Part shown: piece after piece, positions 6,545 through 19,369 of the stretch
Numbering within the stretch: the first letter of the stretch is position 1
How the letters are laid out: every line of letters starts with the position of its first letter
Virus record (IMG/VR): IMGVR_UViG_3300032236_001082
Location: 32,001 to 96,000 of that record
DNA from: a virus
Strand: one strand, 5' to 3'
DNA length: 64,000 nucleotides
The notes under the pieces: model-generated
The model's input: only the letters and a program-made list of their open reading frames with translations
What the model was told of the DNA's origin: nothing
Database searches by the model: none
Translations under genes and position numbers: made by a program

Positions 6545-6701
6545 ACGAGTTAATTGAATATATTAAGTTACATCTAATTAGTTTAGAACAAGACCTAGAT
6601 GGTGAAACAAATGACTATGACATTAGTTATATCCAAGGGGCTATAGATGCCACTGGACACATACTTGACACAGCCAAGACATATATGGTAGGATAACGCC
6701 C

Positions 6702-7061
6702 ATGAATATAACACCACAAGAACGTATGGACCTACTGCTAGATATCAATGTCAGTATGACTAAGTATACTGATTCCAATGGGTCAGATTGGCGTCCCGCC
6801 ATTCAAGACTATGTAACCTATCATACACTACGCAATATGTATGAGGATGACTACAGCGAACTTAAGCCGTACACACTATGGCGTAAGAAACCTGATGAGA
6901 TTATGCTTAGCATAATTAATTCCACACAACTATTCACAATTGACTTTGGGTGGGAAGACCTACACGAATCAATCCGTGAGTGGCTAATCGAAGAAGAATT
7001 CATCGTAGATGCCGATGAAGCAAGTGAAGAAGAATACAAACAACTAATGGAGGAGATGTAA
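6702..7061 (+). CDS. Hypothetical acidic protein
   Basis: ORF track. Confidence 0.7.
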   Translation: MNITPQERMDLLLDINVSMTKYTDSNGSDWRPAIQDYVTYHTLRNMYEDDYSELKPYTLWRKKPDEIMLSIINSTQLFTIDFGWEDLHESIREWLIEEEFIVDADEASEEEYKQLMEEM

Positions 7062-7062
7062 C

Positions 7063-7257
7063 ATGGCAGCAAAGAAGACAGCAACAGAGACAGCAGCACC
7101 AACAGTCCCAGCACGTGAGTTCCTAGTATCAAAGGGCTTTAAGCCTGGTGCACGTGGCCGCTTTAGCACTGAGATGGTAAAGGCACTGCAGGATGCAGGC
7201 TATCCAATTAAGGCACCAAAAGAGCGTTCAAAGGTTACTTCGGTCCCTTTAGCGTAA
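7063..7257 (+). CDS. lsr2: Lsr2-like DNA-binding domain protein; possible -1 frameshift extension to 7445
   Basis: AREFLxxKG..PGARGRFS AT-hook-like RGR motif. Confidence 0.65.
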   Translation: MAAKKTATETAAPTVPAREFLVSKGFKPGARGRFSTEMVKALQDAGYPIKAPKERSKVTSVPLA

Positions 7258-7460
7258 ACCCTTACTTCGAACTGCCCCCGATCCGAGTATCACGTACACT
7301 GTACGGGCTCGATAGGTTGGGGGCACGTATCGGGTATGTAATGTGCGGGGATTGCAAATTGCACATGTCCTATTGCAATTGCGACGGGGGAGTAAAAGCT
7401 CCGTCTCAAATAGTGAAAGCACTTGATAATCTAGTACGACTATGATAGAATGGGGGACTT

Positions 7461-7712
7461 ATGGCTATCAGTATAAATCAGAAATATGTTAAACAGACTA
7501 ATGATATGTTGCTTAACGCAGAGGCTAATTTAGAACTAATTGCCACTCAGTTAAACACACTACCTGCCCGAGAGCAGAACAGATTGTTTAGGATTATCCT
7601 AAGTTATATAGACATTGTTTCTAATTCTAGAAACGCTGGTATGAAGGATATGATTAACCTATCTAAAGATATAATGGACACCGTAAATCTATACTATGAG
7701 GAGAATCAATAA
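7461..7712 (+). CDS. Hypothetical protein
   Basis: ORF track. Confidence 0.65.
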   Translation: MAISINQKYVKQTNDMLLNAEANLELIATQLNTLPAREQNRLFRIILSYIDIVSNSRNAGMKDMINLSKDIMDTVNLYYEENQ

Positions 7713-8098
7713 TGGGAGCCCGAGTTAACTTTGTATTTAAGACAGAATTAGATAAGCCTAACATTGTGCTATATAGCCACTGGGGTGAAACTACGTGGCG
7801 TGAGGATTTGGCTATGGCTATTGCTAAGTCACAATCCCGCCTCAAATTGGGTGATACCTCATATGCCACCCGCATTATCATGTCACAGTTGATTGGATCA
7901 GATTGGGATTCAGAGACGGGATATGGAATTCACCTAGCAACAGATGAAGAACTAAATGAAGGTATGTTTGACTTTTGGGTAGAGATTGATATGACTACTC
8001 AAATGGTTAATGATTCAGGGCATTGGCATTCATTTGAATCATTCAGGGAATATCACCTTGAAGAGATGACAGCCAACCATTCATTTGACAGCATTTAA
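7712..8098 (+). CDS. Hypothetical phage protein (MGAR...YSHWG type)
   Basis: ORF track; GGAG RBS. Confidence 0.75.
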   Translation: MGARVNFVFKTELDKPNIVLYSHWGETTWREDLAMAIAKSQSRLKLGDTSYATRIIMSQLIGSDWDSETGYGIHLATDEELNEGMFDFWVEIDMTTQMVNDSGHWHSFESFREYHLEEMTANHSFDSI

Positions 8099-19068: not shown

Positions 19069-19369
19069 GGATTTTCTTTAAAGTATTCCAAGTTTCTGCG
19101 CTTTTGTGCAAATTGTTTTGCTTATCTATGCGCCCTAGATCCATGAAGATTCCTCCACGTACACCAAATTCTTTATTAGCAACGCCTTCTTTATAGCATT
19201 GCTTAATAACTGGACAACTCAAACAAACTTCGTCTGCAGTTTGTGCCATGATCTTATCGTTTTCGTAATCATCATAAAACCAATTGATGTTCATCCCAGC
19301 ACATGCTGCTAGGTGGTACCACTTTAGATCTTCCGCATCAATTCCTAATGACTTAAGTATATTTGACAT
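19049..19369 (-). CDS. whiB: WhiB family transcription factor
   Basis: W...AAC...C..CPV...C...GVRGG. Confidence 0.9.
   Translation of the reverse strand: MSNILKSLGIDAEDLKWYHLAACAGMNINWFYDDYENDKIMAQTADEVCLSCPVIKQCYKEGVANKEFGVRGGIFMDLGRIDKQNNLHKSAETWNTLKKIHGKNIL

Follow-up and report, generated by a model that had tools for sequence, protein, structure and literature searches.

A putative programmed -1 ribosomal frameshift fusing an Lsr2-like module to a Cys4 domain in an early gene of uncultured freshwater phages

The stretch of DNA analysed here (the window, 64,000 nucleotides) corresponds to positions 32001-96000 of a complete phage record of 112 kb with terminal repeats, which comes from an uncultured freshwater phage. 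The WhiB-family protein encoded in this 112-kb phage suggests an actinobacterial host, and Lsr2 is the resident silencer of actinobacteria. Among a group of short, co-oriented early genes, the window contains a gene in two overlapping frames, the first of which encodes an Lsr2-like module and the second a Cys4 zinc-ribbon-like domain (Table 1). Its two neighbours (6702-7061 and 7461-7712) could be assigned to no family, and the open reading frame (ORF) located two genes downstream (7712-8098, 128 aa) matches phrog_31860, a family of unknown function (E 1e-22).

Table 1. Position of the features discussed in the text (coordinates of the window)
Feature	Position	Strand	Remarks
Shine-Dalgarno GGAGGAG	7049-7055	+	7 nt before ATG 7063; GGAGG-type motifs at the same place in homologues
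0-frame ORF P0001, putative short product	7063-7257	+	64 aa, Lsr2-like RGR domain
RGR motif (R31 G32 R33)	7153-7161	+	Invariant in 19 aligned family members
Internal SD-like AAGG, candidate 5' stimulator	7231-7234	+	10 nt upstream of the heptamer
Slippery heptamer C_CCT_TTA	7245-7251	+	X_XXY_YYZ register, read from the sequence
-1 frame extension	7251-7445	+	64 codons and TGA; 63-aa Cys4 zinc-ribbon-like domain from Val codon 7254
0-frame stop TAA	7255-7257	+	One codon past the heptamer; 16/16 loci
Long irregular stem-loop, candidate frameshift stimulator	7259-7345	+	GC-rich core 7273-7325; apical hairpin 7292-7306
CxxC...CxC (C31, C34, C41 and C43 of the extension)	7344-7382	+	Codons 7344, 7353, 7374 and 7380; presumed zinc ligands
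WhiB-family gene	19148-19321	-	G000:C1:51148-51321; PF02467 E 6.5e-11, above the cut-off; 110-aa open frame

The tail of the first frame reads GTC CCT TTA GCG TAA, with codon boundaries C|CCT|TTA at the slip site, and both the coordinates and the register of the C_CCT_TTA motif are those given in the initial annotation of this DNA. The -1 frame has no stop between 7212 and the TGA at 7443-7445, and the peptide quoted for it was recovered when the sequence was read again. As had also been remarked, the first half of the extension has no good start, the only -1-frame start codons found in the window being TTG 7317 and ATG 7341, and the AAGG reported about 10 nt upstream of the heptamer is present. 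Within the overlap of both frames (7212-7257), CCCTTTA is the sole in-register heptamer, and the probability that a single heptamer occurs by chance in an overlap of 15 codons is a few percent. A slip at this point would give a protein of 127 aa, composed of 63 codons of frame 0 followed by 64 codons from 7251. The main support for such a putative frameshift is comparative and goes beyond the presence of the heptamer alone, with 16 distinct loci carrying a slippery heptamer at this place.

These 16 distinct homologous loci were collected from IMG/VR and metagenome contigs, which were searched with either half of the gene, and their extensions are 54-84% identical. The two-frame layout, that is, an Lsr2-like ORF ending in TAA and a zinc-finger frame that continues in -1, occurs in every one of them, always with the 0-frame stop 1-2 codons from the slip site. 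In 12 loci the heptamer is the identical C_CCT_TTA within the pattern NNC CCT TTA NNN TAA, where the codon after TTA varies (GCG, ACG, ATG, GTG, CAG, TCG or GCA). On the other hand, the wobble bases of CCT and TTA are fixed (zero entropy), as compared to 1.2-2.0 bits at neighbouring wobble positions. The four loci without C_CCT show T_TTA_AAG (L010, L015 and L024) or T_TTA_AGG (L020), 3 nt downstream. Across the whole set the upstream C_CC and the downstream AAG/AGG are mutually exclusive, T_TTA being the only element common to the 16 loci. Both C_CC.U_UU.A and U_UU.A_AA.G are among the shift-prone, under-represented heptamers of E. coli (PMC4066793). The codon table of the slip site over the 16 loci is the strongest single result of this analysis: the conservation of the site among homologues exceeds what its amino acids would demand, and the fixed wobbles, together with the replacement of one heptamer by another, point to a selection that would maintain slipperiness and not the peptide alone.

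The same alignment bears on whether the change of frame would occur by tandem slippage. A programmed frame change of another kind could consist in the slip of a single P-site tRNA-Leu on U_UUA while the A site waits, or in a change at the RNA level; T_TTA as the sole element common to the 16 loci is what such a mechanism would predict, and the stop found 1-2 codons away in all of them also fits it. The L020 locus, whose A-site tRNA is unable to re-pair on T_TTA_AGG, fits a P-site slip better than a tandem one. Nevertheless, the mutual exclusion of C_CC and AAG points to selection for a second tRNA able to re-pair, which argues against a pure P-site slip, whereas the RNA-level version faces C3 and T3 runs that are too short for known transcriptional slippage, a process that needs long homopolymers. 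A non-tandem mechanism is thus unlikely, and tandem slippage is the reading followed here. As for L020 itself (T_TTA_AGG instead of T_TTA_AAG at L020:1480-1500), its site is not that of a canonical A-site slip, and it could be either a weaker site or a case of P-site slip aided by the rare AGG codon.

Upstream of the heptamer, AAGG is found at equal spacing, as part of Lys-Val/Ala codons (AAG G..), in about 11 of the 16 loci, and it is absent from L010, L023, L024 and L027; its role as a 5' stimulator, an element that is optional in bacteria and lies 6-17 nt upstream of the slip site, is suggestive only. In the window, this SD-like element also contains an in-register A_AAG (7230-7233), the shiftiest tetramer in E. 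coli, at a point where the -1 frame is already open, and a second, minor slip site there is conceivable. This A_AAG site is not conserved, since loci L005-L008 have a -1-frame stop between it and the heptamer.

An assembly indel had been mentioned in the initial annotation as an outcome that would undo its reading. None was detected: the contigs of four runs, from two studies, that cover the gene differ by substitutions and contain no indel within 7063-7445, the likely source run has the identical sequence at a depth of 92, and 16 independent assemblies share the layout. A broader version of this objection would be a broken gene, where a one-base deletion, either recent or due to an assembly error, had split an in-frame gene, leaving the heptamer as a coincidence. 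In-frame relatives do exist (see below), which makes a split by mutation conceivable, and the few percent calculated above is the chance of such a coincidence in a short overlap. However, the layout is shared by 16 distinct sequences whose protein identity goes as low as 54%, both parts are under purifying selection, and the slippery site and the RNA structure are specifically maintained. A single misassembled template for all 16 contigs is excluded by their divergence of 7-40%. These data, together with the depth and the contigs of the four runs, make a broken gene or an artefact exceedingly improbable.

Variation of another kind was noticed on both sides of the gene. In related strains from three runs, one base is inserted after 6988 and another is missing at 6993, a compensating pair of changes that shifts two codons near the end of the upstream ORF 6702-7061. 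Downstream, in 7454-7524, a contig of run X3 shows 65 other letters for 69 bases at the start of the ORF 7461-7712, and the junction after the frameshift gene appears variable.

The part of the -1 frame that precedes any possible start was analysed as a coding sequence. The 63 codons counted from Val 7254 align without gaps in the 16 loci, and substitutions at codon positions 1/2/3 amount to 1097/834/1933 before the conserved ATG and to 810/596/1797 after it. The earliest -1-frame start lies at codon 7 of the extension or later in all the loci, and in most of them there is none before codon 16. L007 has a -1 frame that opens right at the heptamer, only 3 codons ahead of the Val codon of the extension. 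Residues V1, P3, R11, T15 and L16, all upstream of possible starts, are invariant or near-invariant, and, among the residues before the ATG, R11, G18 and G23 show little or no variation in 55 family members, in-frame ones included.

These observations also bear on the alternative of two separate genes, where the 64-aa ORF would be complete by itself, a zinc-finger peptide would be translated from ATG 7341 (34 aa) or TTG 7317 (42 aa), and the conservation of the intervening stretch would correspond to RNA structure or regulation. The ATG 7341 codon (Met30 of the extension) is indeed conserved in the 16 loci, with AAGGTAGG-like or GGG-rich motifs 8-13 nt before it in the window (7317-7340) and in L007, L010, L018, L022, L023 and L027. 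Gene callers do produce short ORFs in relatives (P0002, 43 aa; P0004, 56 aa), and the RNA in between is under structural selection, all of which would agree with two genes. Against them stand the gapless, third-position-biased substitutions in codons 1-29 of the extension, the conserved R11, G18 and G23, two beta strands of a confident structural model (residues 16-19 and 25-28) upstream of Met30, and the replacement of TTG 7317 elsewhere by CTG, ATG, AGC, GCT or GAT, while the conservation of the slip site and the switch of heptamer would be left unexplained. Two separate genes are therefore very unlikely. Independent translation from TTG 7317 or ATG 7341, another refutation foreseen in the initial annotation, failed on the same grounds, as the upstream residues are conserved, form part of the fold and are matched in the in-frame relatives, with no conserved earlier start. 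An additional, internally initiated 34-aa peptide from ATG 7341 could nonetheless accompany the two frameshift products.

A word-based search detected a protein of 120 aa (P0003) with both domains in one frame, and an HMM search gave 44 cluster representatives, most of them of 113-190 aa, about 40 of which have both domains in one frame. These more distant, in-frame relatives, with the REYLxxxGFxxGxRGRF module at the N-terminus and the zinc domain at the C-terminus, align along the whole extension, and their single ORFs were confirmed at the DNA level in 10 viral contigs (L029-L038), of which L029 and L033 are ~104 kb in length. Each homologue checked either keeps a slippery heptamer or is an in-frame fusion, the two outcomes that the initial annotation had proposed to look for. 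In-frame relatives indicate that the two-domain fusion is the normal architecture of the family, and the best explanation is that the two-domain long form is ancestral and that this phage clade has acquired the short form as an extra product. A tree of the zinc domain (65 columns) is poorly resolved, with the frameshift-type label strongly clustered, which would agree with a single origin of this type. Some longer in-frame members (P0015, P0017, P0019 and P0025) carry two tandem Lsr2-type RGR modules before the zinc domain. As for the distribution of the family, no relative was found for P0007 in a search of viral contigs, and a scan of genome contigs returned only two marginal matches of 20 residues, in Sphingomonadaceae assemblies. 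Since neither a blastn search with 6700-7720 nor a tblastn search with the extension gave any match to cultured phages among 50,697 phage records, the family is known, in these collections, only from uncultured phages.

Downstream of the slip site, ~90 nt fold into a long irregular hairpin in the 16 loci, with a conserved apical stem (CGUAC...GUACG) and lower stems that differ in sequence from one locus to another. The folding energy was compared with that of synonymous recodings under two null models, either the codon usage of the window or that of the gene itself. For the 90 nt after the slip site, the first null gave a mean z of -4.3 (-6.0 for the window sequence) and the second a mean z of -2.8 (-3.8 for the window sequence). 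Under the gene's own codon usage, the controls gave mean z values of +0.19 for the next 90 nt downstream (-0.86 in the window) and of -1.18 for the upstream 0-frame region (-0.32 in the window). The equivalent region of seven in-frame homologues has a mean z of 0.04. The 3' RNA structure exceeds the coding requirement, and does so only in frameshift-type loci. Because the upstream coding region also shows a mild excess, the structure signal may in part extend over the whole gene. In some loci, the z value of that upstream 0-frame region (7144-7233 and homologous regions) goes down to -2.9.

Covariation was analysed on the named structure, where 69% of the cells are paired, as compared to 29-47% with slid partners, and the covariation score of 0.217 (versus 0.149 +/- 0.016) was equalled by none of 500 shuffles. 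This structure, together with per-sequence folds and synonymous-recoding nulls, was used in place of the RNAalifold consensus, which, as the register of the helix changes from locus to locus, contains only 9 consensus pairs for the 16 sequences. A dinucleotide-shuffle null, which gave a z of only -1.27 for 7240-7345, ignores the coding constraint and was hence replaced. An Rfam search of 6900-7600 with E values up to 1 gave nothing relevant. The hairpin was also considered as a terminator and was not called as such, there being no T-run after it.

The distance between heptamer and hairpin, which the initial annotation gave as about 21 nt, further than typical, had to be revised in part. The GC-rich core does lie 21 nt after the heptamer in the window, and the stable core is about 19-22 nt away across loci, but the spacing of the whole hairpin is shorter. 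When folding was restricted to the RNA left free by a ribosome positioned on the heptamer, the base of the hairpin was located 7 nt after the heptamer in the window, and 7-13 nt after it in 15 of the 16 loci, L020 having its first pair at 21 nt. The concern about a 21-nt spacer applies therefore to the core only, and the usual spacing of 5-9 nt is reached by the weaker basal pairs only.

Regarding the encoded proteins, P0001 matches phrog_6269 ('Lsr2-like DNA bridging protein', E 0.0025), and the profile of the family reaches the Lsr2 C-domain 2KNG (E 0.32) with RGR aligned to RGR. In the AlphaFold model of the 64-aa module (pLDDT 72), two helices (17-23 and 36-45) flank the RGR motif, and a Foldseek search with this model placed 2KNG at rank 1 (rmsd 1.8 A, 29 columns, 28% identity) and 6QKP at rank 3, with E values of 2.8-3.2. 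The 64-aa protein begins with 11-16 disordered residues, which are followed by the DNA-binding module. For the Pfam family PF23359 (Lsr2_DNA-bd), P0001 gave no match at E values up to 1, the N-terminal module of the in-frame relative P0007 scored 22.5 bits (cut-off 26.9), and the two-repeat relatives pass through their second RGR module (E 1e-12 to 1e-16). No match to the N-terminal oligomerisation domain of Lsr2 was obtained in any library searched. Several weak but convergent lines, including the tandem arrangement with a bona fide Lsr2_DNA-bd in relatives, describe the N-terminal module as Lsr2-like, and it is named in this way, and not as an Lsr2, because it stays below the Pfam threshold and lacks the oligomerisation domain.

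In the case of the C-terminal domain, cysteines C31, C34 and C41 are present in all of 55 sequences and C43 in nearly all, and the Cys4 domain would bind zinc. The AlphaFold model of the extension, built from the 55 sequences, has a pLDDT of 94.2 over all 63 residues, including residues 1-29. Comparisons of the Cys4 domain with known structures gave nothing below E 2.8 in a Foldseek search of the PDB, and a best Z of 2.0 with VIA-align against 48,161 chains. In the protein atlas, the only matches were to unnamed viral clusters, all of them below 0.9. Weak, sub-threshold matches to Pfam DUF2688 were seen in 6 of the 55 members, and a complex prediction with two copies of the zinc domain plus Zn scored 0.00, which is no evidence either way.

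Taken as a computational case, the gene 7063-7445 is very probably a genuine programmed -1 ribosomal frameshift with products of 64 and 127 aa. The two products proposed in the initial annotation find support in the conservation of the site, the coding nature of the -1 stretch, the existence of in-frame relatives and the absence of an indel. Standard translation from ATG 7063 would stop at TAA 7255-7257 and release the 64-aa protein, which would be little more than the RGR DNA-binding module. A fraction of the ribosomes, with tRNA-Pro on CCU and tRNA-Leu on UUA, would slip one base back on C_CCU_UUA to pair with CCC_UUU, and would continue in the -1 reading (AGC GUA AAC...), adding the 63-aa Cys4 zinc-ribbon-like domain to reach 127 aa. 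The predicted junction of the long product is ...VTSVPL-SVNPYF..., with VTSVPLSVNPYFELPPIR as the junction peptide. The stem-loop 7259-7345 would probably promote the slip, perhaps helped by the SD-like AAGG located 10 nt upstream, whereas the loci with U_UUA_AAG would follow a tandem slip of tRNA-Leu and tRNA-Lys. From the sequence we infer that slippage takes place and with some efficiency, that both forms would bind AT-rich DNA through the RGR module early in the infection of an actinobacterial host, and that either silencing or counter-silencing would be tuned by a fixed ratio of the domain-only to the full-length form. As the short form lacks whatever activity the zinc domain provides, the frameshift would fix the ratio of two activities.

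A further step, which we consider only as a rather doubtful possibility, would be that the frameshift is a regulatory device that either sets this ratio or adjusts it to the translational state or the tRNA supply of the host. The bare RGR module would then compete with host Lsr2 on AT-rich DNA without bridging, as opposed to the full protein made of the module plus the zinc ribbon.

Among known systems, OrfA/OrfAB of the IS3 family (IS911, IS3 and IS150) and E. coli dnaX would be the closest in logic, whereas lambda G/GT is the usual phage example. In IS3-family elements, as is well established (see also PMC4066793), a small DNA-binding product is read in frame 0, and a -1 slip on an X_XXY_YYZ motif near the stop adds a domain. 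They also have an upstream SD-like element and a downstream structure as stimulators, which are candidates in the present gene, and a regulatory short:long ratio, which would be comparable to the one proposed here. The two systems differ in the lack of sequence or domain homology, in the added domain (a 63-aa Cys4 module here, a DDE transposase there), in the heptamer (C_CCU_UUA here, A_AAA_AAG there) and in the setting, an early phage gene as opposed to a mobile element. The tau/gamma frameshift of dnaX offers another parallel, with a bacterial-type -1 frameshift, an internal SD about 10 nt upstream, a 3' hairpin and a shared N-terminus. However, the frameshift product of dnaX is the shorter one and its hairpin lies 6 nt from the site, whereas the phage gene would yield a longer protein by frameshifting and has the strong part of its hairpin at a distance of 21 nt. 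The lambda G/GT tail assembly chaperone resembles the case proposed here as a conserved phage -1 frameshift, where a short product and its C-terminally extended form are made in constant proportion, but it is a late structural/assembly gene, unlike the early, non-structural, DNA-binding gene described here, for which no PHROG or Pfam match links it to tail assembly chaperones.

Most of the well-supported programmed frameshifts known in phages concern the genes of tail chaperones and capsids. A T7 5.5-5.7 fusion would be a further lead. The Lsr2 and Lsr2-like proteins of actinobacteriophages (PMC8612146) share with this gene an RGR AT-hook-like motif between two short helices and the setting of a WhiB-encoding actinophage. 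The Lsr2 C-domains 2KNG and 6QKP are also the best, though weak, matches in sequence and fold. Unlike Lsr2, the phage protein has no N-terminal oligomerisation domain, its DNA-binding module being N-terminal and followed by the zinc-ribbon-like domain. In the survey of phage Lsr2-like proteins (PMC8612146), the words 'zinc' and 'frameshift' are absent, a literature search gave no publication in which Lsr2-like genes of phages are related to frameshifting, and the portion of a recoding review that the terms searched could reach contains no such case. While the mechanism is canonical, the novelty lies in the gene family and in its setting among early genes.

A last question is related to what such a gene would mean for these phages. 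It constitutes a comparatively strong case of frameshifting in an early, regulatory, DNA-binding gene, which comes with natural controls, namely the in-frame relatives without the RNA structure and two interchangeable slippery heptamers. The family, previously unnamed and widespread in uncultured phages, combines an Lsr2-type RGR module with a Cys4 domain, and gene callers mis-annotate it as a 64-aa orphan and an orphan of 34-56 aa. The resulting model, in which the phage would make two isoforms of a nucleoid-protein mimic at a fixed ratio during the takeover of actinobacterial hosts, is testable. In the event that the frameshift acts as a regulatory device, the freshwater actinophage would gain a built-in silencer/anti-silencer pair from one early gene, and the zinc-ribbon domain, for which the PDB searches gave no relative, would represent a new effector fold.
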